Assembly (NCBI GenBank): GCA_040752415.1
Contig: JBFMGU010000281.1
Coordinates: forward strand, 1-13,597
From: Myxococcota bacterium
GTDB taxonomy: Bacteria > Myxococcota > JACRCW01
Direction of reading: 5' to 3'
Length of the DNA stretch: 13,597 nucleotides
The notes beneath the pieces are model-generated. The model worked only from the letters and a program-made list of their open reading frames with translations, was not told where the DNA came from and made no database searches. The position numbers and the translations under genes are program-made. This document shows positions 1-13,597 of the stretch, piece after piece (position 1 is the first letter of the stretch; each line of letters begins with the position of its first letter).

Positions 1-1
1 G

Positions 2-454
2 GAGAGTGCCACCCACGCGCTGCTGGAGCTTTCCCGTGACGCGAGTGGGGCACCGGAGATCATCTTTGGCGCGGTGCTGGGCGCGGTCATGGTGGAGCCG
101 GAAGCAGCGCAACGGAACACGGCGGCCATCCTCCGTCACGGCGGGGCGGCGAGCGCGGGCGTGTCGACGTTGTTGGCGCTCACCGCGGCCGTCGGTGGCC
201 TCAAGGTCATGCCGCTCACCTGGCTGGCGGGGCTGCAGCACGGTGAGGACCTGCTGAAGATGGCGGACGCCGTGACGGCGGTGAAGGGTCGCCACCTGAC
301 GCGCCCGGTGGCGGACCTGTGCTGGAAATGGAGTGACGACGAGGTGGCCTTCCGCGCCGAACGCGCCGAGGCCCGTCGGAGCATGCCGCCGCCCGCGCGC
401 AAGGAGCAGCTTGCCCTGTTCATGGGCGACGAGAATTCGCGCAACAAGACCTGA
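2..454 (+). CDS. 5'-truncated protein whose C-terminal part resembles the ADP-ribosylglycohydrolase (ARH/DraG) fold with a degenerate catalytic motif
   Basis: Frame is open from base 2 (ESATHALLELSRDASGAPEIIFGAVLGAV...) to TGA 452-454 with strong GC3 bias. ILRHGGAASAGVSTLLALTAAVGGLKVMPLTWLAGLQHGEDLLKMADAV follows the ARH C-terminal pattern GGDxDT...GA.aGA..G...iP..W...L....l...a..l. Family call is by eye on a fragment. Confidence 0.55.
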   Translation, partial: ESATHALLELSRDASGAPEIIFGAVLGAVMVEPEAAQRNTAAILRHGGAASAGVSTLLALTAAVGGLKVMPLTWLAGLQHGEDLLKMADAVTAVKGRHLTRPVADLCWKWSDDEVAFRAERAEARRSMPPPARKEQLALFMGDENSRNKT

Positions 455-463
455 GACGGAGAG

Positions 464-1333
464 ATGGGCATGGAGAAGGCTGCGGTCATTGGACTGGGAA
501 CCATGGGCGCCGGCATTGCGCAGGTGCTCCTGCAAGCCGGCTACAGCGTCGTGGGCGTGGAGAACGAGGAGGGACGCCTCAAGGCCGGCCTGGCACGCGT
601 GCGCAGTGGCCTCGAGAAGGCGCTGGAGAAGGGGAAGATCACCAAGGCGGACATGGATGCCGCGGCGGGGCGACTGACCGGCGCAACGAGCACGCAGGAC
701 GGTTGTCGGGGCGCGGACCTCGTCATCGAGGCGATCATCGAAGACATGGAGGCCAAGAAGGTGGTGATGTCCGCCGCCGAGCAGGCCGCCAAGCCCGACG
801 CCATCCTCGGCACCAACACCTCCAGCCTCTCCATCACGGCCATTGCCACCGCGGTGAAGACGCCCGCGCGCGTGGTGGGGCTGCACTTCTTCAACCCCGT
901 GCCTGCCATGGCGCTGGTGGAGGTGGTGCGGGGTGAGCGCACCGACGAGAACACCGTTGAGCGCTCCCGCGCGCTGGTGAAGCGGCTGGGGAAGGAAGCC
1001 ATCGTCGTGCGCGACTCACCCGGGTTCGCCAGCAGCCGTCTCGGCGTCATGCTGGGCCTGGAGGCCATGCGCATGCTGGAGGAGGGCGTGGCTTCCGCCG
1101 AGGACATCGACAAGGCCATGGAGCTTGGCTACCGCCATCCCATGGGCCCGCTGAAGCTCACCGACCTCGTGGGCCTCGACGTGCGGCTGGCCATTGCGGA
1201 GCACCTCTGGAAGGAAGTGGGTGAGCAGTTCCGTCCGCCGCAGATCCTTCGTCGCCTGGTGCGCGCGGGGAAGCTGGGACGGAAGACCGGCGCCGGGTTC
1301 TACGAGTATCCCGCCGAGAACAAGGACCGCTGA
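464..1333 (+). CDS. hbd: 3-hydroxybutyryl-CoA / 3-hydroxyacyl-CoA dehydrogenase
   Basis: Rossmann GLGTMGAGIA, EAIIEDMEAK, NTSSLSIT, catalytic GLHFFNP, HPMGP and GKLGRKTGAGFYEY. 289 aa, GGAG upstream. The start may instead be ATG 470. Confidence 0.93.
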   Translation: MGMEKAAVIGLGTMGAGIAQVLLQAGYSVVGVENEEGRLKAGLARVRSGLEKALEKGKITKADMDAAAGRLTGATSTQDGCRGADLVIEAIIEDMEAKKVVMSAAEQAAKPDAILGTNTSSLSITAIATAVKTPARVVGLHFFNPVPAMALVEVVRGERTDENTVERSRALVKRLGKEAIVVRDSPGFASSRLGVMLGLEAMRMLEEGVASAEDIDKAMELGYRHPMGPLKLTDLVGLDVRLAIAEHLWKEVGEQFRPPQILRRLVRAGKLGRKTGAGFYEYPAENKDR

Positions 1334-1357
1334 GCCCCGTTGCGCTCGACGGGCGTC

Positions 1358-2716
1358 ATGACCTCCGGACTGACGGAAACCTGGAACCGCCTGCGCGTGG
1401 AGGATCCCTGGTCCGCGCGTGCGTGGGTTGCGCTCGTCGTCACCGTGGCGTTCACGGTGGTGGAGCGCTTCCTGTTCGTGTTCCATTTCAGTCCGCCTTC
1501 GCGCGCGGTGTCGTCGGACATGGCGGGTTACGTGGACCGGGCCTGGCGGCTGGCCTCCGGTGCCCAGCTCAACCGCTTTGACACGTTCTTCCCGCCCGGC
1601 ACGCATCTCCTCATGACCCCCGCCATGTGGATCGCCGGCGACAAGGACCGCGGTCTCATCCTCAACCAATACCTGTGGTGGTTCCTGGCCGTGGGGACCG
1701 CGCTCGTCGTGGCGGAGCTGGCGTGGCAGTTGTTCCACCACCCCGTTCCCGTCGTGCTTTCCCTGTGGGGGCTGTACGCGCACCAGGCGTTCCAGCAGTA
1801 CGCGGGATTCTTCCTCAGTGAGCTGCCGTTCTCGTTCTTCATGGCGTGCACCGTCGTGGCGGGGATGGTGGCCGCGCGGCAGCCTCCATCGAGGAGCCGG
1901 GTGCTCTGGTACGCACTGACGGGCGTGCTGGGGGGCGTGGCCATGGTCATCCGCCCGCAGTTCGTCCTTACCGCTGGCGTCATGGGATTGCCGCTGCTGA
2001 TGCGCCAATTCCCGTTCGTGCGGTGGCGGGAGGCGTGCGCGCTGGTCGGGGCGTTGGTGGTCTCACCGCTGTTGGCCATGACGCTGAACGCGCGCGCCGC
2101 CGGTGAGTACGTGGGGCTGGCCACCAATGGCGGCTTCAACTTCTACCAGGGCCATTGCCCGGTTGACGTCGTGGAGACGCGCACCAGTCACGGTGTCTAC
2201 ATCTGGGGCTCACCCGCGCGGCTGCAGCGGTTGCAGCGCGAAGGGCGACTGGAGACGCGCACCGTCATCCAGGGCCACATGGCGTGGGAGAACGACTACT
2301 TCATCCGCGAGGGACTGGAATGCATCCGCCGCGACGGGTGGGGCCATCTCGACCGTGTCGTCGGGAACGTGGCGGACTTCTTCCACACCACGAGCCCCTG
2401 GCCGGGAAGCGCGTCCCACGTGGGGCCGCTGCTGCTGATGGTGAACCAGATCTACTGCTTCGCCCTGTTGTGCTCGGTGATCGCCGCGCTGTTCGTGGTC
2501 CGACGACGGAAGCCGGAGCGCCTGCTGCTCATGCTCCTCTGCACCGCGTTGCCGGTGGCGCTCATCTTCTACGGGGACAGCCGCTTTCGTATCCCCTACG
2601 ACATGTTCGGGGTGGTCCTGACGTCGGGCCTGCTCGCGTTGCGCTTCGGTTTCCGTCGGGATGACGTAGGGGCCGCGTCAGAACAAGGTGACCAATCGGC
2701 ATTGCCGACGTCGTGA
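1358..2716 (+). CDS. Polytopic membrane glycosyltransferase, GT-C fold (ArnT/PMT, GT39-like)
   Basis: Many hydrophobic segments. Loop motifs SDMAGY and FPPGT after the first TM, then LSELPF, IRPQF, NGGFNFYQG and GDSRFRIP, typical of lipid-phosphate-sugar-dependent transferases. ATG 1358 is preferred over TTG 1340. Confidence 0.72.
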   Translation: MTSGLTETWNRLRVEDPWSARAWVALVVTVAFTVVERFLFVFHFSPPSRAVSSDMAGYVDRAWRLASGAQLNRFDTFFPPGTHLLMTPAMWIAGDKDRGLILNQYLWWFLAVGTALVVAELAWQLFHHPVPVVLSLWGLYAHQAFQQYAGFFLSELPFSFFMACTVVAGMVAARQPPSRSRVLWYALTGVLGGVAMVIRPQFVLTAGVMGLPLLMRQFPFVRWREACALVGALVVSPLLAMTLNARAAGEYVGLATNGGFNFYQGHCPVDVVETRTSHGVYIWGSPARLQRLQREGRLETRTVIQGHMAWENDYFIREGLECIRRDGWGHLDRVVGNVADFFHTTSPWPGSASHVGPLLLMVNQIYCFALLCSVIAALFVVRRRKPERLLLMLLCTALPVALIFYGDSRFRIPYDMFGVVLTSGLLALRFGFRRDDVGAASEQGDQSALPTS

Positions 2717-2949
2717 GCGGGCCACGGCCTGGAGTGCGGCGGGCCCTCGCCTCCCTGGTCAGCGCTGAGTGCGTCGTCAACAGACGACCGCAGAACCCGG
2801 GCTCCGCGACGACGGGGAATACACCGCAGCTCCGCCAGGCGGTCCGTCGGCGTGTGCTGGAACCCGCTCGGCGCTGGCCAGGGCGGCGAGGGCCCGCCGC
2901 ACTCCAGGTCGTGGCCCGATCACGACGCCAGCAATGCCGATGGGCATCT
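2680..2949. mobile_element. Candidate MITE-like non-autonomous element
   Basis: Contains the 75-bp inverted arms, begins AGA and ends TCT, and is flanked by direct repeat CCGCGTC (2673-2679 and 2950-2956). No credible coding capacity. The outer ends align only with an indel, and no transposase is in the window. Confidence 0.35.
2695..2941. repeat. Long imperfect inverted repeat: arms 2695-2769 and 2867-2941, 97-bp spacer
   Basis: Manual alignment of 2695-2769 with the reverse complement of 2867-2941 gives 68/75 identities without gaps. Mismatches are at 2706, 2708, 2717, 2727, 2752, 2759 and 2766. Confidence 0.95.
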
Positions 2950-3137
2950 CCGCGTCTTTCACCGTCGCTGGTCTCCCAGACCGGTTGCCCGCTGCCACAC
3001 CACCTGATTTCACCGCCACGTGAATTGAGGGGTCGCGTGTGGCGCGTCACCCACTGGCGCCGGGTGCAACACACCACAAACACACCCCACCGCGCCGCCT
3101 GGAACGCCCTTCCCTCGGCGTCACGGGCGCTTTGCGC

Positions 3138-3154
3138 TTGGAACACTCCTTGCT
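3138..3154 (+). promoter_or_regulatory. Putative sigma-54 (-24/-12) promoter upstream of the PAP2 gene
   Basis: TTGGAACACTCCTTGCT has GG at 3140-3141 and GC at 3152-3153 with exact GG-N10-GC spacing, close to consensus TGGCAC-N5-TTGCW. Confidence 0.5.
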
Positions 3155-3166
3155 CATTCCAAGGTC

Positions 3167-3724
3167 GTGAGCACCGCGCCCGCAACCCACCGACTGACCA
3201 TCCATCGCATCGCCGCATTGGACGTGGCGGCGTTGGAGCGGGTGGCGCGTGCCCGGACGCGGGAATGGACCCGCCGCATGAAGGTGGTCACCAGCACGCC
3301 GCTGTGGTTGGGGCTGTTCCTGGCGGGGATTGCGTCGCTGGGTCAGGGCAGCTTCTGGCGGGGGCTGCTGGCGGGCGGCATCGTGGCGGGCGTGGCGTCG
3401 TTGTCGGTGATGGTGGTGAAGTTCGCGGTGCGTCGGGCGCGTCCATCCATGGCGTACAGCCTGCTGAAGACGTTGGACCGCTACAGCTTCCCCTCCGGGC
3501 ACTCCTGCACGGCCTTTGCGGTGGCCATTGGCGTCTTGTTCCTGGCGCCCCTGCTCTTCCCCGTGGCCCTGGCCCTGGCCGCTGTGGTGGCGTTCTCACG
3601 GGTGTATCTGGGCGTTCACTACCCCTCGGACGTGCTCACGGGTGCGGCCATGGGTGTGGTGCTGGGGGCGGCAACGTTCGCCTCCAACCTGGTCACCGAG
3701 TTCGTGGGCCTGCTGGGCGGCTGA
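3167..3724 (+). CDS. PAP2-family membrane lipid phosphate phosphatase
   Basis: All three PAP2 motifs are present: KFAVRRARP (KxxxxRxRP), SFPSGHS and SRVYLGVHYPSD. Hydrophobic helices. Start uncertain (GTG 3167 or TTG 3218). Confidence 0.92.
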   Translation: MSTAPATHRLTIHRIAALDVAALERVARARTREWTRRMKVVTSTPLWLGLFLAGIASLGQGSFWRGLLAGGIVAGVASLSVMVVKFAVRRARPSMAYSLLKTLDRYSFPSGHSCTAFAVAIGVLFLAPLLFPVALALAAVVAFSRVYLGVHYPSDVLTGAAMGVVLGAATFASNLVTEFVGLLGG

Positions 3725-3775
3725 GCCCATCCTCCCTTCCCAAGAGGCGTGTGGTCGGGCGTAGGCTCCCGGGCC

Positions 3776-4918
3776 ATGCCCGCATTGTTCGAAACCGAGC
3801 TGCACCAGGACGTCCGCGCCACCGCCCGCAAATTCGCGCAGAAGGAGATTGCTCCGCACGCGCTCCAGTGGGAGGAGGCCAACGAGTTTCCTCGCGAGCT
3901 GTACGCCAAGGCAGGCCAGGCCGGCATCCTGGGCATCACGTACCCCGAGGAGTACGGCGGGATGGGTGGCACCATCTCCCACGCCCTGGCGGCTTCCGAG
4001 GAGCTCATCCTTCACGGCAAGTCCGTGGGGACGGTGGTGGGCCTGGGGAGTCACGGCATTGGCATCCCGCCCATCCTGATTGCCGGCTCCGACGAGCAGA
4101 AGCGTCGTTTCATCCCGCCGGTGGTGCGCGGGGAGAAGATTGCCGCGTTGGCCATCACGGAGCCCAGCGCCGGCAGCGACGTGGCCCACATCCGCACCCG
4201 CGCCGTCCGCGACGGGGACCACTACGTCATCAACGGCTCCAAGATGTTCATCACCAGCGGGACGCGCGCGGACTACGTGACCACCGCGGTGCGCACGGGT
4301 GAGGACGGGCATGGAGGCATCTCGCTCATCGTCATCGAGCGGGGGACGCCAGGGTTCAGCGTGAGTCGGAAGCTGCACAAGATGGGGTGGTGGGCATCCG
4401 ACACGGCGGAGCTGAGCTTCCAGGATTGTCGCGTGCCGGTGGCGAACCTGCTGGGCGGCGAGAACGAGGGTTTCACGACGATCATGCGCAATTTTGCCAC
4501 CGAGCGCCTCTTTCTCGCCGGAAACTGCGTGGCGATTGCGGAGCTGGCCTACCAGGAGTCCATTGCATACGCGCGGGAGCGCATGGCGTTCGGGAAGTCG
4601 CTGACGGGATTCCAGGTGGTGCGCCACAAGCTCGCCGACATGGCGACGAAGATTGCCGCGGCGCGCGCGCTGACCCACGAGGTCGTGGAGCGATTCCTAC
4701 GCGGGGAGGCCGTGGCGGGGCTGGCGGCGATGGCCAAGAACGCGGCCACGGACATGTGCACCGCGGTGTGCAACGAGGCAGTGCAGATTCACGGCGGGTA
4801 CGGCTACATGCGCGAGTACGTCGTGGAGCGGCTGTATCGCGACGCGCGCCTGTACCCGATTGGAGGCGGAACGCGCGAGATCATGAACGAGATCATCTGC
4901 AAGGTGGAAGGGTACTGA
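3776..4918 (+). CDS. Acyl-CoA dehydrogenase
   Basis: PEEYGGMG, AITEPSAGSD, INGSKMFITSG, KMGW..SDTAEL.F, AFGKSL..FQVVRHKLADM, AVQIHGGYGYMREY.VERLYRDAR..PIGGGT. ATG 3776 fits the family N-terminus better than GTG 3749. Confidence 0.95.
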   Translation: MPALFETELHQDVRATARKFAQKEIAPHALQWEEANEFPRELYAKAGQAGILGITYPEEYGGMGGTISHALAASEELILHGKSVGTVVGLGSHGIGIPPILIAGSDEQKRRFIPPVVRGEKIAALAITEPSAGSDVAHIRTRAVRDGDHYVINGSKMFITSGTRADYVTTAVRTGEDGHGGISLIVIERGTPGFSVSRKLHKMGWWASDTAELSFQDCRVPVANLLGGENEGFTTIMRNFATERLFLAGNCVAIAELAYQESIAYARERMAFGKSLTGFQVVRHKLADMATKIAAARALTHEVVERFLRGEAVAGLAAMAKNAATDMCTAVCNEAVQIHGGYGYMREYVVERLYRDARLYPIGGGTREIMNEIICKVEGY

Positions 4919-4921
4919 GCC

Positions 4922-6013
4922 TCAGGGATTCGGCCGCTCCGACGCCTTCTTGAGCCACTTGTCCATGGCGCGCCACCCGTCGGCGAGGATGTTCTCGACG
5001 AGCCCCGCGCCCGGCGGCAACGCGCTCTCCGTCTTCACGCCCTGCTGCCGCAAGTCCTCGACGGTGTCATGCAGCGTCTCGTTGGGGTCGCGGAACTCCA
5101 GCCCCAGCTCCGACTGCGCCTTCTCCGGACTCACGTACCAGCAGTAGCTGGCCATCTCGACGCTGACCGGGTCCAGCGGATTGCGACCGTCGATGCGCTT
5201 CGCGAACTCGTCGAGGAAACGCGCGGACAACGCCCCCACGGAACGCGGCAGCGGAATCAGCGGCGCAGGAACACCACTCACCGCGGCCAGCCGCGCGAAG
5301 AAGTCCTTCACCGGCGTGTTGAGCCCGGTGACGAGGTAACGCTGACCTGTGCGCCCCTTCTGCAGCGCGAGGACCAGCGCGTGTGCCGCGTCGCGCGCGT
5401 CGACAATGGAGACGCCGCCCTGGGGAACGCCCGGAATCTGGCGCTGGATGAACATGCGGACGTCGCGGGTGCTCTCACCGCGCTCGTCGCCGGGACCGAG
5501 CAGCAGGCTCGGGTTCACGCTCACCACCTCGAGGTCCCGCCCCGCCGCCGCCAGCGCGGTCTGCTCCGCGAAGATCTTCGACAGGTAGTACGGCCACTTC
5601 CCTACCAGCGTGAGGTCCGGCTGCGCACTCTCGTCGAGGACGCGACCCGGTGGCTCGGTCACCCCCACCACGCCCGACGTCGAGCAATGGACCAGGCGCG
5701 GCACCCGCGCGGCCTTGCACGCGTTCACCACGTTCTGCGTCCCGCGCACGTGCAGCGCGTGGAGGTCGGCGGCGTCACTGGGGTCCCGGCTCACGCGACC
5801 GGCCAGGTGGAACACCGCGTTGCATCCCTTGGCCGCGGCAGCGACGGAAGGCTCGTCGAGCACGTCGCCCAGCGCGACCTGGACCTTCACCTCCTCCAGT
5901 CGGGGCGCGGGCTTGCGAGACAAGGCTTTCACGGTGTGCCCCGCGTTGAGCAGCTGCTCACACAGATGCAGGCCCAGGAAACCGGTTGCTCCCGTCACAA
6001 GGTAGGTGGCCAT
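4922..6013 (-). CDS. elbE: NAD-dependent epimerase/dehydratase (extended SDR), ElbE-like
   Basis: TGATGFLG, HLAG, HCSTS and catalytic YYLSK. GGAG RBS before ATG. The symbol is inferred from its position directly downstream of the elbD homolog. Confidence 0.85.
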   Translation of the reverse strand: MATYLVTGATGFLGLHLCEQLLNAGHTVKALSRKPAPRLEEVKVQVALGDVLDEPSVAAAAKGCNAVFHLAGRVSRDPSDAADLHALHVRGTQNVVNACKAARVPRLVHCSTSGVVGVTEPPGRVLDESAQPDLTLVGKWPYYLSKIFAEQTALAAAGRDLEVVSVNPSLLLGPGDERGESTRDVRMFIQRQIPGVPQGGVSIVDARDAAHALVLALQKGRTGQRYLVTGLNTPVKDFFARLAAVSGVPAPLIPLPRSVGALSARFLDEFAKRIDGRNPLDPVSVEMASYCWYVSPEKAQSELGLEFRDPNETLHDTVEDLRQQGVKTESALPPGAGLVENILADGWRAMDKWLKKASERPNP

Positions 6014-6031
6014 GTTGCGCTCCTGACGTCG

Positions 6032-9000
6032 TCACACCAGCTGGAAGATCTTCTGGAACTTGATGAGCAGGTCCGGGTCATTGCTCTTCACCACGCCACT
6101 GACGAACTCCATCACCGTGGGCGTGTACTTCTCCTCGACAATGCGCCGGAACATGTCGGGGCTGGTCTTGAGCACGCAGTCCGCGCTCCCGCTCTTCTCG
6201 TTGGTGATGGTGCAGCCGTCCTTGCGCACCTGCACGGTCCACTTCCCGTCGGAGCCGTCGCCGAGGCTGAAGTAGTACGTGACCGGGTCTTCAACCGCCG
6301 GCGGGTGGAACTGCTGGTTCAGCCGGTTGAAGAGTCGCGGCAGCAGCGGTCCCTCCTCCTGGGCGGGAGCGCCGTCGTCGTGGTCCAGGTCCAGGAGCAG
6401 GTCATCACGCAGCAGCTCCACCGCGCGCTGCACCAGGCGGGCGGCCTCCCGGTACGCATCACTCTGCCCCATGCCCTCCGTCCGACGAGCAAGCTGGTCC
6501 ATGGTGATGGGAACGCCGATGCGAACCGTCAGCTCACGCGACTTGGGCAGGATGGCGCCCTTGGGCATGGAGTCGTAGGTGCCGCCCAGGTAGACCGGCA
6601 GCACGTCGACGTGATGGTGCATGGCCAGGTAACCGAGCAGCGGCTTGAACTCGTGAATCTGTCCGTCGCTGCTGCGGGTGCCTTCCGGGAACAACAGGAG
6701 GCTGCGGCCGCTGTCCAACACCTCACCCGCCTTGCGCAACGACTGCTTGAGGCTGCCGCTGCGCTCCATCGGGACGAGATTGGTGAAGTTCTCGAAGTAG
6801 AAGCGACGCAGCGGTCCGTCGAAGAAGTAGTCGCGTGCCGCCAGCGACGGGAGATCAAACCCCGCCTCTCCCAACGCCACCTTGCAGAGCCCCATGTCGA
6901 GATGGCTCGCATGATTGGCGGCGACAATCACGTTGCGGTTCTGCGGAATGCGCGCCTTCCCGACGACACGCGTCTTGAACACGCGCGTGTACAGCGCCCG
7001 CTGCCCCACGGCGAGCACGTCCTTGACCACGCGCTGCACCTGAGACGGCACCTCGATCTCCACCTCGTCGGGGGAGATGACCGGCGACGGGTCCTTGGGC
7101 GTCGGGTCACCCAGCATGGGGGGCGCGGCGTGCCGGATGACGTCGACCAGCTCCGCCACCGTCTCCGCGGCCTGCACCTTGTCCGGGTCAATGGGGCCGC
7201 CGTGCAGGCGCTCCAGGCTCACCAGGATCTCGGTGCGCGCCAGGCTGTCCACGCCCAGGTCCGCACCCAGTCGCGCGTCGACACGGACCTCACCGAGCGG
7301 CTTGGCCAACGCCTCCGCCACCGCCTGGCACACCCGCAACGCAAGCCCTTCCGCGGCCGCGGCCTTCTCGGTGGTCCCGGCCTTCCGCTGCGCTTCCAGG
7401 TGCTTGATCTCCTCGACAACCTGGCTGCGACGCACCTTGCGCGTGGCCGTGCGCGGCAGCGGCGCGTTGGTGGCGTAGATGACCTTGGGACGTTCGTTCT
7501 CGGGGAGGTTGCGGATGCGGTCGCGCAGGGCGCGTTCCGCACGGGCCATGACCAGCGCCTCGGTCTCGCCCTCGCCGGGAGCGCGCGGAACCCAGAGGCA
7601 GGCCACCACCTCACCCCCGTTCTCGTCGGGGAGACCCACAATGGAGAGCTCGCTCACGCCTTCCGTTCCCTCGAGCTCCTGCTCCACCTGGTCGGGGTAC
7701 ACGTTCTCGCCGGAGGCGCTGACAATGACCTCCTTGGCGCGCCCCACGACGTAGAGCCGACCCTTTCCGTCGATCTTTCCGAGGTCACCGGTGCGCAGCC
7801 AGCCGTCGGAGGTCAGTGTGGCCTCGGTGGCTTCCGGGTTGTCCTCGTAACCGCGCATGATCGTGGGACCACGCGCCAGGATCTCGCCCACGCCCTGTGC
7901 GTCGGGGGAGTCGATCTTGAGGTCCACGCCGGGGATGGACGTGCCCACGGTTCCGGGCAGCGCCAGCTTCCCCATCCGGTGCACGGTGACGACGGGAGAC
8001 GCCTCCGTCAGCCCGTACCCCTGCGTCATCTCGAAGCCCAGGCCCTGGAAGAACTCCTGGGTCTGCGGAGGCAGCGCGGCACCGCCGGAGATGAGCACCT
8101 TGATGCGCCCACCCATGCGCTCGTGCGCGCTGGCAAAGAGCATGGGGCCCAGGTTGACGCCCAGCTCCCGCCACGCCCAGCGGTTCACGCGCAGCGCCAG
8201 CTCCATGAACGCCGCCCACACCGGACCGCGCGCCTGCACCTCGCTGCGGATGCGACGCTCCAGCATCTGCCAGAGTGCGGGCACACCCACCATCGCCGTC
8301 ACGCCGCCGGCCTTGAGGCCCAGGCGCAACTGCTCGGCGTTGAGCTCCTGCAGGTACGTGATGCGCCCGCCCTTGTGCAGCGGCATCAAGAGCCCGCAGG
8401 AGAACTCGAACGTGTGATGCATGGGCAGCACGCTGAGCCCGGCGTCCTTGGCACCCAGCGGGAAGATCGGCGCCAGCCCGGCCATGAGGTGCGCAAAGTT
8501 GCGGTGCGTCAGCTGCACCGCCTTGGCCTTCCCCGTGGTTCCCGACGTGAAGATCAGGCTGGCCACGTCGGAGCGTTGCTCGCGTGGGACCAAAGCGCGC
8601 GGTGCATCCCAGGCCGCCCGCTCCGCCGCACGCGTCGCCATGTCCTCCGCGATGAAGATGCGCGGCACCGCCTTGGGGTTCTCGTCGGAGGAGCCCATCA
8701 GCTCACGCAGCGAACGGCCAATGGCCGCGTCGCGCTTGCCGCTGAGGATCACCGCGGTGGCACGGGACGCGCGGACCAGGCGCACCAGCGCTTCCGCCGA
8801 CAACGTGTGGTCGACAGGCACCGCCGTGCCACCCGTCTTCATGATGGCGAAATACGCAATGGCCCAGGCGCTCTGTCCCTCGCTGCACAGGACCACGCGG
8901 TCGCCGGGCTTCACGCCGTTCTCGAGGAGCTCCACCGCCGCGGCGTCGGCGCGCGCGCGCAGTTGCGCGTACGTGATGCGGTGCAGACCTTCCGGCGTGA

Positions 9001-10753
9001 GATCCTGCAGCGCCACGCGGGTGGCGTGGGTGCGGCCCACCTCGTCGATGAGCTGCACGAGATCGTCGAACGTCTGGAGCGGCTGGGTCTCCTTGGCCAG
9101 GCGACGGTCGATCTCCGGGTAGACCCACTTCTCGAGGCCGGGGATGTGCACCTCGTGGAAGTAGTAACGCCAGTCGAGATGCTCGGGCCAATACGGAAGC
9201 TTGATGCGGTCCTGCTCGGTGAGATGGTCGCGCAGCTCACGCGCGTTGTAGCCCACGAACGTGTAGCGGTTGGTCCACACAAAGGGCTTGAAGACCTCGA
9301 TGATCTTCGCGCTGTTGCCGGCCTGCTTCTGCAGCGCGCCAAATGCCTTGCCCACCGTCTTCAGCGGCGGCGCCACGGTGCCCACCGCGCCCAGCGTCTT
9401 GGCGAGGAGGCCGGACACATTGGCCACCATGGGCGAGCTGGTGCGCTCCCAGTCCTGCCAGCTCAGCGTGTGGCTCTCGATCTTCCTGAGCAACGGCGCC
9501 AACGCGGGCGGGCCCGCTGGTTTCACCTTGGCCTTCGTCCGCTTGTACAGACCAATGAGGTCGACGACGCGGTACATGGGCAGCGGGTGCAGGTCGCTGG
9601 AGCAGATCTGGTAGACCGGCCGCGCCTTCCCCACCATCAACGCCGCCAGGATGTAGATCGACGACGACGCCACGTAGTCGACCGGGATGATGTCCAGGCT
9701 GACGTGGTCGTCGCCGGGAATGCCCAGCTGACCCTTCAGCGACATGTACGTCATGGGCGCGGAGGTGTTGATGCCTTCATTCCAGCCCTTCACGGGCCAC
9801 GCCATGGCGCTCTCGACGATGGCCGGTCGCACGATGGTGTACGGCAGGCCGCTGGCCTCCACCATCAGCTCGCCGATGCGCTTGCTGTACGTGTAACCAT
9901 TGGTGAAGCCCCAGTGCAGCGCGCGCTGCTCGCCGAACTTGCTGAGCTCGTCGCGCAGCCACTTGCGACGCTCGTCGGCCAGCAGCTTCTTGTAACCGGT
10001 CCCGCTCTGCGGCTCACCGTTGCGCTCCGCGCGCTCCTTGGCCTTCAGCGCAAAACGCGTCTGGTTGTCGGCGTGGTCGGCGCGCGCCCGCACGCTCTCC
10101 ACGATGGCCACGCACTCCTCGGTCTCGCGCTCGATGTCGAACTCGCTCGCGTCGATGCGGTCGGAGTACGGGAACGGGTCGAGGCTGGGGAGCTCCTCGC
10201 GGATGGTGCCCTGGCGGTCGCCGGCCACGTAGCACGTCGAGGTGTGGAACACCGGGATGTCTCCCAGGATGCGTGCCACGTCGATGGTGTGCTTGGCACC
10301 ACGGATGTTGACGTCCACGAGCTCATCCAGCGGCGGATTGAAGTCCACCACGCCGGAGCAATTGAAGATGGCGGCAATGCGGCCGCTCAGCTTGCGCCAG
10401 CTCTCGTCGGAGGCGCCCAGGCCGGGGAGCGAGACGTCGCCTTCAATGACCTCGAAGATGTTGCGCGCGTGCTCACGCCACGCATCCAGGCCCATGGACT
10501 GCCAGAAATGCTGGAACGGGACGGAAGGCAGGAACTCCTCGTCCAGGCGCTCCCAGCCGCTGCGGAAGCGGCCCTTGCGCACCAGCATGTGCAGCTTGCC
10601 CACGGAGGGATAACGCGCCAGCAGCATGCTGACGGTGACCTTGCCCAGGAACCCCGTGCCTCCAAGGACGAGGAGCTCCTTGCCACGCAGGGTGGCCTCC
10701 ACGTCCAGCGGCGGCCCCTGCAAGGGATTCTCGACGCTGCGCGGCCCTCTCAT
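6032..10753 (-). CDS. elbD: Multifunctional ether-lipid biosynthesis enzyme: fatty acyl reductase + acyl-CoA synthetase + ACP + PlsC acyltransferase + C-terminal SCP2-like domain
   Basis: FAR: GGTGFLG (10643-10663), YTYSK, IVRPAIVES. AMP-binding: FTSGTTGKAK (8522-8551), YGLTE, WLRTGDLG. ACP: LGVDSL (Ser codon 7244-7246). PlsC: NHASHLD (6896-6916), FPEGTRS. The order matches Myxococcus xanthus ElbD. ATG overlaps the upstream stop (ATGA). Confidence 0.92.
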   Translation of the reverse strand: MRGPRSVENPLQGPPLDVEATLRGKELLVLGGTGFLGKVTVSMLLARYPSVGKLHMLVRKGRFRSGWERLDEEFLPSVPFQHFWQSMGLDAWREHARNIFEVIEGDVSLPGLGASDESWRKLSGRIAAIFNCSGVVDFNPPLDELVDVNIRGAKHTIDVARILGDIPVFHTSTCYVAGDRQGTIREELPSLDPFPYSDRIDASEFDIERETEECVAIVESVRARADHADNQTRFALKAKERAERNGEPQSGTGYKKLLADERRKWLRDELSKFGEQRALHWGFTNGYTYSKRIGELMVEASGLPYTIVRPAIVESAMAWPVKGWNEGINTSAPMTYMSLKGQLGIPGDDHVSLDIIPVDYVASSSIYILAALMVGKARPVYQICSSDLHPLPMYRVVDLIGLYKRTKAKVKPAGPPALAPLLRKIESHTLSWQDWERTSSPMVANVSGLLAKTLGAVGTVAPPLKTVGKAFGALQKQAGNSAKIIEVFKPFVWTNRYTFVGYNARELRDHLTEQDRIKLPYWPEHLDWRYYFHEVHIPGLEKWVYPEIDRRLAKETQPLQTFDDLVQLIDEVGRTHATRVALQDLTPEGLHRITYAQLRARADAAAVELLENGVKPGDRVVLCSEGQSAWAIAYFAIMKTGGTAVPVDHTLSAEALVRLVRASRATAVILSGKRDAAIGRSLRELMGSSDENPKAVPRIFIAEDMATRAAERAAWDAPRALVPREQRSDVASLIFTSGTTGKAKAVQLTHRNFAHLMAGLAPIFPLGAKDAGLSVLPMHHTFEFSCGLLMPLHKGGRITYLQELNAEQLRLGLKAGGVTAMVGVPALWQMLERRIRSEVQARGPVWAAFMELALRVNRWAWRELGVNLGPMLFASAHERMGGRIKVLISGGAALPPQTQEFFQGLGFEMTQGYGLTEASPVVTVHRMGKLALPGTVGTSIPGVDLKIDSPDAQGVGEILARGPTIMRGYEDNPEATEATLTSDGWLRTGDLGKIDGKGRLYVVGRAKEVIVSASGENVYPDQVEQELEGTEGVSELSIVGLPDENGGEVVACLWVPRAPGEGETEALVMARAERALRDRIRNLPENERPKVIYATNAPLPRTATRKVRRSQVVEEIKHLEAQRKAGTTEKAAAAEGLALRVCQAVAEALAKPLGEVRVDARLGADLGVDSLARTEILVSLERLHGGPIDPDKVQAAETVAELVDVIRHAAPPMLGDPTPKDPSPVISPDEVEIEVPSQVQRVVKDVLAVGQRALYTRVFKTRVVGKARIPQNRNVIVAANHASHLDMGLCKVALGEAGFDLPSLAARDYFFDGPLRRFYFENFTNLVPMERSGSLKQSLRKAGEVLDSGRSLLLFPEGTRSSDGQIHEFKPLLGYLAMHHHVDVLPVYLGGTYDSMPKGAILPKSRELTVRIGVPITMDQLARRTEGMGQSDAYREAARLVQRAVELLRDDLLLDLDHDDGAPAQEEGPLLPRLFNRLNQQFHPPAVEDPVTYYFSLGDGSDGKWTVQVRKDGCTITNEKSGSADCVLKTSPDMFRRIVEEKYTPTVMEFVSGVVKSNDPDLLIKFQKIFQLV

Positions 10754-12528
10754 TTGCCGTTGCCCTCGTGATGGCGGTGCATCATCTGCTGGTGGTGTTC
10801 CGGGTTGTGACGGTCCGCGGGCTCAAGCGGCTTCACGGTCGGATCCTCGACGTCAAGCACCAGGATGGGCGGTGCATGCACCATGGTGATGTTGGGGCTA
10901 CGCGGCGCGGTGTCCTTGGCCATCTCCACCGCCTCGGACAGGTTGCGCGCGGGCTCGTAGCCCAGGATGCGACACACGCTCTCACTCTTGGCGCCAGCGA
11001 CGATGATGCGGCCCATGTGCTGTCGCCCCGCCTCACCCCAGTACCACATGTAGAACGGGTGGACGCCGTGGTACGCGTGCCCCCGACGGTACATCTGCCG
11101 GTAGATGGGATTCTGCGCGAATTCCTCCTCGTACTTCTTGTGCAGCGTCATGCTGTCCTTGGTGATGGGCAGCAGGCGGTGGAAGAACTCGATGTACGAG
11201 GGATGCTGCTCGGCGTCGAAGCGGTCCTCGGCGGGGTGGCTGATGATGAGCGTGCCACCCTTCTTCACCAGCGGAACGCCACGATACAGGTTGTGCATGT
11301 ACCCCTGCGCCAGCACCTGCACGAGCACGGGGTTCAGGATGGAGTGCACGTTGTAGGGCGAGATGAACGGCATGCCCATGATGGCAATGTCGGCCTGGCC
11401 CTTCACGGGGATGGCGTACTGCTGGAAGACGCGCTCCAGGCACTTCCTGTGCACCGGCTCCGTCTTGCCCGCCCACACGCCAATCATCTCGTAGGGCGCC
11501 TCGATGCGGCTGAAGATCTCCGTGCGCCCGTCGGAGGGGAGCTTGGAGAGCGTGAACATGAGGCCCTTGAACTTCATCCACTCCAGGTCGGTGAAGTCCT
11601 CCTCGCGCTTCATCAGGAAGCTGAGCTGACCGCCGTACATGTTGTTGTTGATGGCGGTCTCGATATGGAAGACGTTGCAGTGCTGGTTGACCAGCTTGCC
11701 CATGCGGTTGGTGCTGTCATGGAGCGAGCTGCGCTCAGGGTCCATGTAGCTGTGGCACTCGCGCATGGTCATGGGGTTGTGGTGCGCGCGCAGGCTCTTG
11801 TACCCGGCCAGCCCCACGGCGACGGACTTGTTGCCGCCATCCATGGGGACCAGGTTGATGTTCACGTAGATGAGCAGGTCACTGTCCAGCACGCGACGCG
11901 GCAGCTCCACCACCTCACCGCGCTCCGTCTTGCCAATGACCTCCATGCCCTCGTCTTCGGCGTCGTGGTTGTAGAGGCGGTCGGGCCAGTAGGCGTTGAA
12001 CACCTTGTCCCCGACGATGTGCCGCACCTCCCAGTCCTTCATGCGCCGGTGGAACGAGGTGGCGATCACGATCTCGATGTCGGTGACGCCGTGATCACCC
12101 AGGATCTGCAGGAGGATGTTGAGGATGCGCTCACGGATGTCCGGCCGCTTCATGGGCGGGAGCGGGAGCGAGATGTCGTCGATGGCGATGGTGACGGTCA
12201 TCCCGGGGAAGAGCTTGGCGTAGAGCGGCTCATCCTCTTCCGGGTGGTTCAGCGCGTAGCGGATGGCGGCGTCCGGGTGATTCAGCGCAGCCATGGGCGG
12301 CTTGGGGAAGATGACGCGCGTGCCGACCGGGAGATGCTCCAGGCGGAAGTCGTCACCGTAATAGAGCACGCGGGGCGGGCTGTTCTTGTCGGTGTGGACG
12401 ATGCCGCCGTCCCACGCGGGCTTCACGTTGTTCCGCGGGATGCTGATGGTGGGTGCCTGCACCGCCGGCTTGTTGAGCGGCTGGCGCGGGATCTTCGTGG
12501 GCGGCGAGGGCACTTTGGTGGACGTCAT
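10750..12528 (-). CDS. elbC: LarA (lactate racemase)/DUF2088-fold protein, ElbC-like
   Basis: IAIDDISLP, IVIATSFHR, DSDLLI, GGNKSVAVGLAGYKSLRAHH, GVWAG, ADIAI and KKGGTLII follow LarA motifs over the full length. Translationally coupled to elbD. The symbol is inferred from gene order. Confidence 0.82.
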   Translation of the reverse strand: MTSTKVPSPPTKIPRQPLNKPAVQAPTISIPRNNVKPAWDGGIVHTDKNSPPRVLYYGDDFRLEHLPVGTRVIFPKPPMAALNHPDAAIRYALNHPEEDEPLYAKLFPGMTVTIAIDDISLPLPPMKRPDIRERILNILLQILGDHGVTDIEIVIATSFHRRMKDWEVRHIVGDKVFNAYWPDRLYNHDAEDEGMEVIGKTERGEVVELPRRVLDSDLLIYVNINLVPMDGGNKSVAVGLAGYKSLRAHHNPMTMRECHSYMDPERSSLHDSTNRMGKLVNQHCNVFHIETAINNNMYGGQLSFLMKREEDFTDLEWMKFKGLMFTLSKLPSDGRTEIFSRIEAPYEMIGVWAGKTEPVHRKCLERVFQQYAIPVKGQADIAIMGMPFISPYNVHSILNPVLVQVLAQGYMHNLYRGVPLVKKGGTLIISHPAEDRFDAEQHPSYIEFFHRLLPITKDSMTLHKKYEEEFAQNPIYRQMYRRGHAYHGVHPFYMWYWGEAGRQHMGRIIVAGAKSESVCRILGYEPARNLSEAVEMAKDTAPRSPNITMVHAPPILVLDVEDPTVKPLEPADRHNPEHHQQMMHRHHEGNGK

Positions 12529-12549
12529 GGCGTTTCCGTCGGGTGCGAA

Positions 12550-13218
12550 TCAGTTGAGCTCGATGATGGGCCACCGCTGGCTCTGCGCCATGATGCGCAG
12601 GCGCGGGCCGGGATTGACGGCAGCGGGATGGCCCACCACCGACAACATCGGCGCGTCGGCCATGTCGTCGGAGTAGGCGAAGCACGCGTTGAGGTCGTAA
12701 CCGCGCTCGGTGGCGAGCTGGCGGATGAGCGCGGCCTTGGCGGGACCGGCCAGCACGGGAGGAATCACGTTCCCGGTGGCGACGTTGCGCAGGAACTCCA
12801 GCCGGTTGCCAAAGCAGTCACCCGCCGGAATGCCCAGCCGTTCCCCCAGCTTCACGACGACAAAATCCGGTGAGCCGGAGATGAGGATGGGCGTGATGTC
12901 GCTCTTCTTGCAGCTCTCCACCAGCGTGCGCGCGCCCTTGTACATGGCGGGGAGCATGACGCGGTCCACCACCTCGTCGGAGAGGACGAAGAGGCGGTCC
13001 TCGCTCATGCCCGCGTAGCCCTTGAAGAGCTGCTGCATCAGCGTGCCGCGGTCCATGGCCTCCGCGATGGCCAGCGAGGGCATGCGGACGGCCTCGCGTG
13101 CGGCACGGAGGGCGGAGAAGAGCGGGTTCTGCTGGCTGCGGATGTAGTAGCCCAGCGCGGAGAAGAGGCTGGTGCGGGTGAGCGTTCCATCCACGTCAAA
13201 GAAGGCTGCGCGCGCCAT
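12550..13218 (-). CDS. elbB: HAD-superfamily subfamily IB (phosphoserine phosphatase-like) hydrolase, ElbB-like
   Basis: Motif I FFDVDGTL directly after ATG 13218, motif II ISGS, motif III GPAK, motif IV YSDDMADAPML, then VGHPAAVNP. 222 aa. The symbol is inferred from gene order. Confidence 0.88.
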   Translation of the reverse strand: MARAAFFDVDGTLTRTSLFSALGYYIRSQQNPLFSALRAAREAVRMPSLAIAEAMDRGTLMQQLFKGYAGMSEDRLFVLSDEVVDRVMLPAMYKGARTLVESCKKSDITPILISGSPDFVVVKLGERLGIPAGDCFGNRLEFLRNVATGNVIPPVLAGPAKAALIRQLATERGYDLNACFAYSDDMADAPMLSVVGHPAAVNPGPRLRIMAQSQRWPIIELN

Positions 13219-13279
13219 GCCGGACCTGCCTGCTGACGGCGACGACCGGTCTGGCCCCGGACCGCCGCGGTGGGCGCCC

Positions 13280-13308
13280 CTTGTGTGGCCAAGCCCGCGC
13301 CAAGTCAA
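13280..13308 (-). promoter_or_regulatory. Possible promoter of the elb-like operon
   Basis: Minus strand reads TTGACTTGGCGCGGGCTTGGCCACACAAG. This gives either TTGACT-N17-CACAAG (good -35, weak -10) or an overlapping GG-N10-GC (13287-13303). It lies in the only sizeable, locally AT-richer gap before the operon. Confidence 0.3.
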
Positions 13309-13349
13309 CTGATTTGAGCCTTGTTACGCTCCCGCCAGCGCCCACGCCG

Positions 13350-13595
13350 TCAGAGCTGGGGGCTGTTGGTGGGGAAGTACTCGGGATCCAGCGTGTTGGG
13401 GTCCGCGCCCATGCGCGCCGCGGCCACGCGGTTGTGCACGCGAACCACGTCGCGGAGGTAGCGCTCACGCTCAAAGCGGGCGAGCAGCGAGAAGAGGTCG
13501 CGCGCCAGGTAGCCCACGGCCATGCCGGCAAACCCCAGAACCAGTCCGCCGATCACGCCCAGCAACATCCCGCCCGCCGCCGCCGAGCCGCCCGC
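13350..13595 (-). CDS. 3' end of a hypothetical membrane protein running off the window edge
   Basis: Frame is open to the window edge (AGGSAAAGGMLLGVIGGLVLGFAGMAVGYLARD...). One Gly-rich TM helix followed by a charged tail, high GC3. Confidence 0.6.
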   Translation of the reverse strand, partial: AGGSAAAGGMLLGVIGGLVLGFAGMAVGYLARDLFSLLARFERERYLRDVVRVHNRVAAARMGADPNTLDPEYFPTNSPQL

Positions 13596-13597
13596 CG

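Follow-up and report, generated by a model that had tools for sequence, protein, structure and literature searches.

ElbC of a myxobacterial ether-lipid operon is a LarA-superfamily protein with conserved equivalents of nickel-pincer anchor residues

The elbC gene studied here lies on contig JBFMGU010000281.1 of a Myxococcota bacterium (assembly GCA_040752415.1). The contig stretch that was analysed, positions 1 to 13,597, is called the window throughout. Four genes of the window run head to tail on the minus strand, and their open reading frames together with their Pfam and NCBIfam domain content give the order elbB-elbC-elbD-elbE:

12550..13308, minus strand: elbB, HAD-IB phosphatase-type (Pfam HAD, E 1.2e-25; TIGR01490, 116.5 bits against a cut-off of 98.3)
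10750..12528, minus strand: elbC coding sequence, 592 amino acids (P0001), LarA superfamily, NCBIfam NF052592
6032..10753, minus strand: elbD, multidomain, 1573 amino acids (Pfam domains)
4922..6013, minus strand: elbE, NAD-dependent epimerase/dehydratase-type short-chain dehydrogenase/reductase (SDR; Pfam Epimerase, E 9.1e-35)

The genes are closely packed. A gap of 21 bases separates the end of elbB from the start of elbC, the elbC stop codon and the elbD ATG share four bases (an ATGA overlap), and the elbD stop codon is followed by elbE after 18 bases. The true start of elbB is probably an internal Met just ahead of the DVDG motif. ElbD contains reductase (NAD_binding_4/Sterile), AMP-binding, PP-binding and acyltransferase domains, as well as a weak SCP2-like match, all detected by Pfam. 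The ether-lipid operon of Myxococcus xanthus, elbABCDE, has the same gene order (2022 review; 2026 figure legend). From domain content and gene order, the gene at 10750-12528 is therefore the elbC of an elbB-C-D-E ether-lipid operon.

ElbC is a two-domain LarA-superfamily protein of the LarAH group 15 type. Its match to NF052592 ('NPN-dependent hydroxyacid isomerase, LarAH14/15/16 family', NPN being the nickel-pincer nucleotide) scores 801.2 bits with a cut-off of 740 and covers residues 43-561, equal to profile positions 2-520 of 520. The lactate racemase model NF033504 is failed, at 58.7 bits against a cut-off of 460. An AlphaFold2 model of ElbC, built on a 64-row alignment, has a mean predicted local distance difference test score (pLDDT) of 92.0 and a predicted template modelling score (pTM) of 0.89. 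When the model was compared with the PDB using Foldseek, 19 matches were found at E <=0.001, and down to rank 19 every match listed is a chain of the LarA family. The top match is 9q3k_A (E 1.9e-33, TM score 0.86 by target length), and the best matches are the single-His proteins LarASp and LarABw. Canonical LarA, 5huq, matches the model at E 3.1e-23 with a TM score of 0.75. Public names are inconsistent in a related cluster: of seven named members three are called 'lactate racemase', three 'hypothetical protein' and one 'transcriptional regulator'.

Residue equivalences were read from HMMER alignments to the cryo-EM structure of NPN-loaded LarASp (9q2u/9q3k, E 1.5e-22), Mar2 and 5huq, with roles according to Gatreddi 2025. 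In LarASp, that paper assigns the thioamide tether to Lys195, the Ni ligand to His211, catalysis to His115 and a ribose contact to Asp73, and describes Tyr307 and His401 as substrate-site residues. The corresponding features of ElbC are the following:

11767..12303, minus strand: Lar_N, the cofactor-binding N-terminal domain, residues 76-254 (Pfam PF09861, E 4.6e-32; same stretch in the genome search)
12166..12177, minus strand: Asp118-Ile-Ser-Leu121; Asp118 equals LarA D72 and LarASp Asp73, Leu121 is at the R75/Lys76 position
12049..12051, minus strand: His160, in ATSFHR; equals LarA His108 and LarASp His115 (catalytic)
11845..11850, minus strand: Val227-Pro228, at the position of LarA His174 and LarASp Asn185
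11827..11829 (aag), minus strand: Lys234, in GGNKSVAVGLAGYKSLRAHH; equals LarA Lys184 and LarASp Lys195 (NPN tether)
11779..11781 (cac), minus strand: His250, in GGNKSVAVGLAGYKSLRAHH; equals LarA His200 and LarASp His211 (Ni ligand)
11353..11355, minus strand: Tyr392, aligned with LarASp Tyr307 (substrate site)
11059..11070, minus strand: His487-x-x-His490 in the C-terminal domain, HAYHGVH against HAFHPFH; His490 equals LarASp His401

The initial annotation had singled out Lys234 and His250, 16 residues apart, and the His of ATSFHR. Minus-strand reading and translation confirm all three at the coordinates given. It had also held that the K184, H200 and H108 equivalents of LarA are kept, and the alignments to LarASp and 5huq agree. 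The 5huq match is the weaker one (query 148-252 on chain 96-202) and pairs H160 with H108, K234 with K184 and H250 with H200. Two departures from LarA, likewise described there, are real. The loop at the H174 position is four residues shorter than in LarASp and Mar2 (1+3 gap columns), Val227 occupies the position and the stretch DLLIYVNINLVPMDGG at this loop is free of His. The DxxR motif is replaced by DDISLP, which starts at 12180 on the minus strand and puts Leu121 at the R75 position. In LarA this position binds the NPN phosphate and the substrate carboxylate. The residue pattern in ElbC is not a chance one, because the Lys/His set sits in the Lar_N domain on the functional residues of LarASp.

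Conservation was examined in a close and a distant set of homologues. For the close set, one genome per species was scanned. Of 599 candidate stretches, 583 proved to be relatives, and the top 80 loci were retained. The comparison used 65 of them; the remaining 15 failed to cover residues 45-555, were interrupted by a stop codon or contained an X. Adding the window sequence gives 66 proteins of 52-78% identity. Asp118, His160, Lys234, His250, Val227-Pro228, Tyr392, His487 and His490 are invariant in all 66, so the Lys and His whose conservation among ElbC homologues the initial annotation had considered informative do not vary at all. Across the whole protein, 107 of 592 positions are invariant in these sequences. 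The R75 equivalent, position 121, is always hydrophobic or Cys: Leu in 52 proteins, Val in 8, Met in 4, Ile in 1 and Cys in 1, never Arg or Lys.

The distant set came from an exhaustive HMMER search of 1.84 billion representatives, which gave 1975 proteins at E <=1e-3 and 315 at E <=1e-30. The query and the best 150 hits (151 proteins) include 67 that are 480-600 amino acids long. Among these 67 representatives the triad His160/Lys234/His250 is wholly present in 28, wholly absent in 29 and mixed in 10, and several of the mixed rows are visibly broken. All 28 triad-bearing rows also have Asp118. The C-domain residues His487 and His490 are kept in 54 of the 67 rows, triad-less ones included. An all-or-none pattern is what a cofactor-binding functional unit would show. 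The triad-less relatives (29 of 67; e.g. P0007, P0009, P0012, P0016 and P0024) match the Frankia 'Group 16' of Desguin 2020, Dataset S2. A large NPN-less branch of the LarA-type fold seems to exist.

NPN is supplied by LarB, LarC and LarE, and the initial annotation had correctly stated that none of their genes is in the window. All three are found on other contigs of the same genome (G000; 11.0 Mb, 520 contigs, 96.8% complete). larC and larB are adjacent on one contig, larE is on another, and all score above curated cut-offs. No LarA-type gene adjoins larB, larC or larE in this genome. Its Lar_N proteins are two only, ElbC and a paralogue of the same family that is 58% identical.

A survey of the phylum covered 251 Myxococcota genomes that were at least 90% complete. 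NF052592 matches occur in 199 of them, in 168 above the cut-off; the matches below the cut-off are other LarA homologues. A LarC match is present in 231 of the 251 genomes, including every one of the 199 with an NF052592 match, and all 20 LarC-less genomes belong to the 52 that have no family match. At the level of taxonomic families, LarC is found in 21 of 21 with an NF052592 match and in 5 of 12 that have none. One unpublished genome with both matches (G162) is counted here; when it is left out, the 199 of 199 become 198 of 198. LarB and LarE are present in five complete Myxococcota genomes. Co-occurrence of larB, larC and larE with elb genes, also of interest to the initial annotation, thus holds in the window's own genome and in five complete relatives. 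Three complete genomes with LarC, LarB and LarE (G100, G117 and G123) have no Lar_N match besides the ElbC gene.

The neighbourhood of elbC is conserved to different degrees on its two sides. Among loci with enough flanking sequence, an ElbB-like gene on the same strand ends no more than 400 bases upstream of elbC in 64 of 74, and in 30 of 71 the start of an ElbD-like gene follows within 2 kb downstream, across the phylum. The constant partner of elbC is therefore the phosphatase ElbB, and ElbD is a frequent but non-universal one. The non-universal link between ElbC and ElbD is stated likewise by the 2022 review. What ties ElbC to the pathway is operon position, i.e. the ATGA overlap and ElbD downstream in the 30 of 71 loci.

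The paralogue lies in a setting of its own, with three genes following one another at its side:

contig C497, L090:4360-5973, minus strand: ElbC paralogue, 58% identity; NF052592, 783.7 bits
L090:5974-7134, minus strand: CDP-alcohol phosphatidyltransferase-like
L090:7124-8602, minus strand: Octopine_DH/ApbA-type NAD dehydrogenase
L090:8599-9774, minus strand: MFS transporter

The paralogue and these neighbours appear to form an operon, in a phospholipid-like setting that differs from elb.

From the fold, the family, the residue equivalences and their conservation, the operon and the lar genes, we infer NPN binding, hydride chemistry and a substrate class. With moderate confidence, ElbC is predicted to be an NPN-bearing Group 15 enzyme of the LarA fold that performs single-base hydride chemistry on a phosphorylated glycerol-lipid intermediate of the Elb pathway. 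NPN that the genome's LarB, LarE and LarC produce would be carried by ElbC. It would be tethered to Lys234 through a thioamide; His250 would supply the fourth ligand of the nickel, and Asp118 would sit at the ribose. His160 would be the sole acid/base, taking the proton of the substrate hydroxyl while the hydride of the neighbouring C-H goes to the cofactor. In this way one stereoisomer of a non-carboxylate secondary alcohol may be transiently oxidised, and the hydride may be given back elsewhere or after an intervening chemical step.

A two-base 2-hydroxy-acid racemase is ruled out for ElbC because His174 is replaced by Val227 and Arg75 by Leu121. With one base only, a single stereoisomer would therefore be handled and the hydride returned elsewhere or after another step. 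The substrate is most likely a phosphorylated glycerol-lipid intermediate, because the HAD-IB phosphatase ElbB is the constant partner and ElbD a frequent one. Judged from sequence and gene context, such a compound fits better than a free 2-hydroxy acid: the R75 position is hydrophobic, the partner is a phosphatase and the operon is a lipid one. The initial annotation had proposed a possibly NPN-dependent hydride-transfer enzyme that is not a simple racemase. LarA-family membership, the residue pattern and the supply of cofactor genes support this reading in part; in kind, it had been published earlier by Desguin 2020.

Several observations weigh against the prediction. On the protein itself, the R75 position, an NPN-phosphate binder in LarA, is hydrophobic in ElbC, and about half of the wider family is without the Lys/His/His set, so the scaffold is possible without NPN. 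A tree-corrected test of joint loss of the triad is right in direction and non-significant (4.0 same against 0.2 opposite, median p 0.125, range 0.125-0.25, 7 independent pairs). It was run with FastTree on 59 rows, after exclusion of 8 visibly broken rows and removal of the three tested columns, and the tree has 8, 9 and 7 changes for His160, Lys234 and His250, respectively. On the side of cofactor supply, LarC is also found in 32 of the 52 genomes without a family match and is common across the phylum, which makes co-occurrence weakly discriminating, and related genomes are not independent, which weakens it further as evidence. Other NPN clients are known, e.g. the NphT of the aldo-keto reductase (AKR) fold (Semersky et al. 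2026), and given these the lar genes need not serve ElbC. In tblastn searches with the genome's own LarB, LarC and LarE, no larB, larC or larE turned up at 10 kb or less from elbC in any of 80 myxobacterial loci, and for this reason physical linkage is not usable as evidence. elbC lacks an adjacent elbD in 41 of 71 loci. In the literature, Frankia LarAH14, a member of the same NCBIfam family, had none of seven assayed activities (Desguin 2020, Table 1). No demonstration of NPN or nickel in a Group 14 or 15 protein was found in what the LarA-family papers say of these groups, and the 2022 review, where it treats ElbC, reports no elbC mutant phenotype.

A more far-reaching version concerns the ether bond itself. 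ElbC might enable an AGPS-independent bacterial ether bond through an NPN-borrowed hydride with His160 as the only base, a reading that is considered unlikely. ElbC would transiently oxidise the sn-2 hydroxyl of an intermediate based on glycerol-3-phosphate, for which 1-acyl-glycerol-3-phosphate or a hemiacetal with a fatty aldehyde released by ElbD are candidates. The 2-keto form, similar to dihydroxyacetone phosphate (DHAP), could activate C1 for acyl-to-alkyl exchange or dehydration, after which the hydride would be handed back, with C2 and the C1' of the alkyl chain as possible acceptors. The product would be 1-O-alkyl-glycerol phosphate, which ElbB could dephosphorylate, or alkyl-DHAP for reduction by ElbE. 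A borrowed-hydride route via a transient 2-keto intermediate is chemically attractive and wholly speculative.

ElbC could also be NPN-dependent and act outside ether-lipid synthesis, working with ElbB on a soluble phosphorylated alcohol such as a sugar or glycerol phosphate; its adjacency to elbD in some lineages would then mark no more than a loose metabolic tie. The conserved pair is indeed ElbB-ElbC (64 of 74 loci, against 30 of 71 for ElbD), and Sorangium-type loci have unrelated neighbours (CysH, an ArsA-like ATPase and a protein kinase). The closest structures, LarASp and LarABw, are suspected by Gatreddi 2025 of carbohydrate processing, possibly with a phosphorylated ligand. A related branch marked by the motif 'GGWKS' points the same way. 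It is 32-41% identical, bears the Lys and His, and was traced with a 6-sequence alignment to 80 metagenome loci, in none of which an ElbB, reductase or acyltransferase match lies near the branch gene. On the other hand, elbC is tied to elbD by the ATGA overlap, this order of genes is seen again in 30 loci of the phylum as well as in the published elbABCDE operon, the paralogue also stands beside a phospholipid-type gene, and a hydrophobic R75 position suits a lipid-like substrate more than a sugar acid. Taken together, a soluble substrate is improbable.

The next alternative is that ElbC works without NPN, using another cofactor or none, or is a scaffold for ElbB and ElbD, and that its Lys and His serve a different purpose. 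The 29 of 67 distant rows that lack H160/K234/H250 yet have His487/His490 would fit this, as would the missing NPN-phosphate anchor R75 and the inactivity of LarAH14 in the assays of Desguin 2020. Even LarABw, which truly belongs to the family, was not loaded with NPN in vivo (Gatreddi 2025). Against it, all 66 close sequences have the same four residues for cofactor and catalysis, while only 107 of 592 positions are invariant among them overall. The lar genes are also kept where ElbC is the only Lar_N protein, and no genome has a family match without LarC. An NPN-free ElbC is rated slightly less probable than a soluble substrate.

An ordinary NPN-dependent 2-hydroxy-acid racemase or epimerase is the least probable of all: the characterised homologues in the LarA-family papers do all act on 2-hydroxy acids, NCBIfam uses the product name 'hydroxyacid isomerase' and three of the seven named members of the related cluster are labelled lactate racemase, but ElbC lacks the second catalytic His and the carboxylate anchor Arg75 and falls far short of NF033504 (58.7 bits against 460), myxobacterial Group 15 rows have Asn at K298 and a gap at Q295 (Desguin 2020), LarAH14 showed 0 of 7 racemase or epimerase activities (Desguin 2020), and LarASp, likewise single-His, does not racemise lactate (Gatreddi 2025).

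The 'GGWKS' loci were inspected further. An AMP-ligase match was found in 2 of the 80, an SDR in 1 and LarE, about 6 kb away, in 1. Thirteen neighbours in five of these loci include a 4Fe-4S protein, an alpha/beta hydrolase, an HD domain, a FAD-linked oxidase, an Asp/Glu racemase and transporters. In one locus (L166:8568-9944, plus strand) a FAD-linked oxidase (FAD_binding_4 + FAD-oxidase_C) is directly upstream of the branch gene, and in another (L104:8945-9940, plus strand) a 4Fe-4S dicluster protein. A lipid association reaching this branch was considered and rejected, since the neighbours are heterogeneous and no elb-type genes occur in the 80 loci.

In Sorangium/Byssovorax loci a gene of the 3'-phosphoadenosine-5'-phosphosulfate/adenosine-5'-phosphosulfate (PAPS/APS) reductase type is directly upstream of elbB-elbC on the same strand (L025:8255-9115 and L012:8443-9204, both plus strand). 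The idea that this PAPS-reductase-domain gene is a LarE-like sulfur transferase was discarded, as it is an ordinary CysH (156.3 bits against 154). The CysH-type gene next to elbB-elbC is probably a chance neighbour.

Further features of the window lie in elbC itself, 5' of elbB and beside the operon on the opposite strand:

10768..10809, minus strand: His-rich C-terminal tail of ElbC, 6 His in residues 574-587 (translation)
13353-13595, minus strand: open reading frame running off the window end, 5' of elbB, 81 amino acids visible
464-1333, plus strand: 3-hydroxyacyl-CoA dehydrogenase (Pfam)
1340-2716, plus strand: hydrophobic protein, 458 amino acids, no Pfam match
3749-4918, plus strand: acyl-CoA dehydrogenase (Pfam)

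The His-rich tail of ElbC recalls nickel-handling proteins. As a nickel site of the family it was rejected: at least 4 His are found in just 2 of 66 homologue tails. The residue ahead of the tether Lys is Asn233 (11830-11832) in ElbC and His in 58 of the 66 close homologues (GGHK, compare Mar2); the paralogue on contig C497 also has His at the Asn233 position. The 81-residue fragment at 13353-13595 occupies the place of elbA in M. xanthus. It has no Pfam match and no similarity to the Sorangium/Byssovorax CysH-type protein. The plus-strand neighbours rarely recur near elbC: of 80 loci, 3 match the acyl-CoA dehydrogenase, a single one matches the 3-hydroxyacyl-CoA dehydrogenase, and the hydrophobic protein has no match in any.

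According to the 2022 review, the ether-bond steps of the ElbD route are still to be characterised, and LarA-homologue groups with one catalytic His missing and without a known substrate exist (Desguin 2020, Gatreddi 2025). ElbC as a LarA homologue joins the ether-bond question with these orphan nickel-pincer groups. Work on lipids gains a cofactor hypothesis, and work on nickel enzymes gains gene surroundings that suggest which class of substrate is likely. If the predicted role is true, ElbC would show for the first time an NPN enzyme at work on a lipid precursor, and for the first time a LarA fold that catalyses something other than racemisation. If, beyond this, the ether-bond route were true, a single nickel enzyme would stand in for the eukaryotic GNPAT/AGPS/reductase logic, and the reach of NPN chemistry would grow beyond 2-hydroxy-acid racemisation to include the making of lipid ethers. 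The value of the finding is limited by the published residue pattern, by public annotation that already puts the family in the LarA superfamily, and by functional steps that are deduced.

Among known systems, the closest in gene order is the M. xanthus operon, which runs from elbA (MXAN_1531) to elbE (MXAN_1527). Its ElbC (MXAN_1529 by this numbering) has the same place as the present one, between elbB and elbD, which is then followed by elbE. Orthology of the two was judged from gene order and family, not from direct protein comparison. ElbC is a protein of unknown function in the 2022 review, and the 2026 figure legend assigns it no role.

ElbC has the same fold as the LarA of Lactiplantibacillus plantarum (5huq) and shares its D72, H108, K184 and H200 equivalents. 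It is about 160 residues longer and has neither H174 nor R75. Among solved structures, LarASp and LarABw (9q2u, 9q3k and 9q3j; Group 17 type) match it best in sequence as well as in fold. With them it shares the tethering Lys, the His that ligates Ni, a single catalytic His and the Asp at the ribose. Tyr392 and His490 are equal to LarASp Tyr307 and His401, and both proteins are without the second catalytic His. At about 20% identity there are also differences: the H174 and R75 positions are Asn and Lys in LarASp/LarABw, and Val and Leu with a loop shorter by 4 residues in ElbC. ElbC thus lacks the invariant Asn (H174 position) and Lys (R75 position) of the single-His subfamily of Gatreddi 2025. 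The gene neighbours of LarASp and LarABw are glycolytic and sugar genes, according to the published account, whereas those of ElbC are lipid genes.

The nearest relatives in print are the LarAH Group 15 proteins. Two Anaeromyxobacter rows of this group in Dataset S2 of Desguin 2020 keep the LarA residue at D72, H108, K184 and H200, have L or I instead of R75 and show a gap where H174 would be. The same dataset lists N at K298 and a gap at Q295 for rows of both Group 15 and Group 14. Frankia Group 14 is like Group 15, and Frankia Group 16 is without H108 and K184. Gatreddi 2025 also describes Groups 14 and 15 as lacking His174, and Desguin 2020 suggests that groups without H174 may catalyse another hydride-mediated reaction. 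The residue-level pattern and the idea of non-racemase hydride chemistry are therefore already in print, for the same family and phylum. In its treatment of the groups, Desguin 2020 draws no tie between Group 15 and elbC or lipids. Literature searches, in which some matches were judged by their listing alone, found no publication identifying Group 15 with ElbC or ether lipids. As far as the published rows and motifs go, ElbC and Group 15 have the same residue pattern and the same local motifs, DDISLPLP and NxVPMDGGxKS, and nothing essential differs. Compared with its Group 15 relatives, the features of ElbC's own are Asn233 and the non-conserved His-rich tail.

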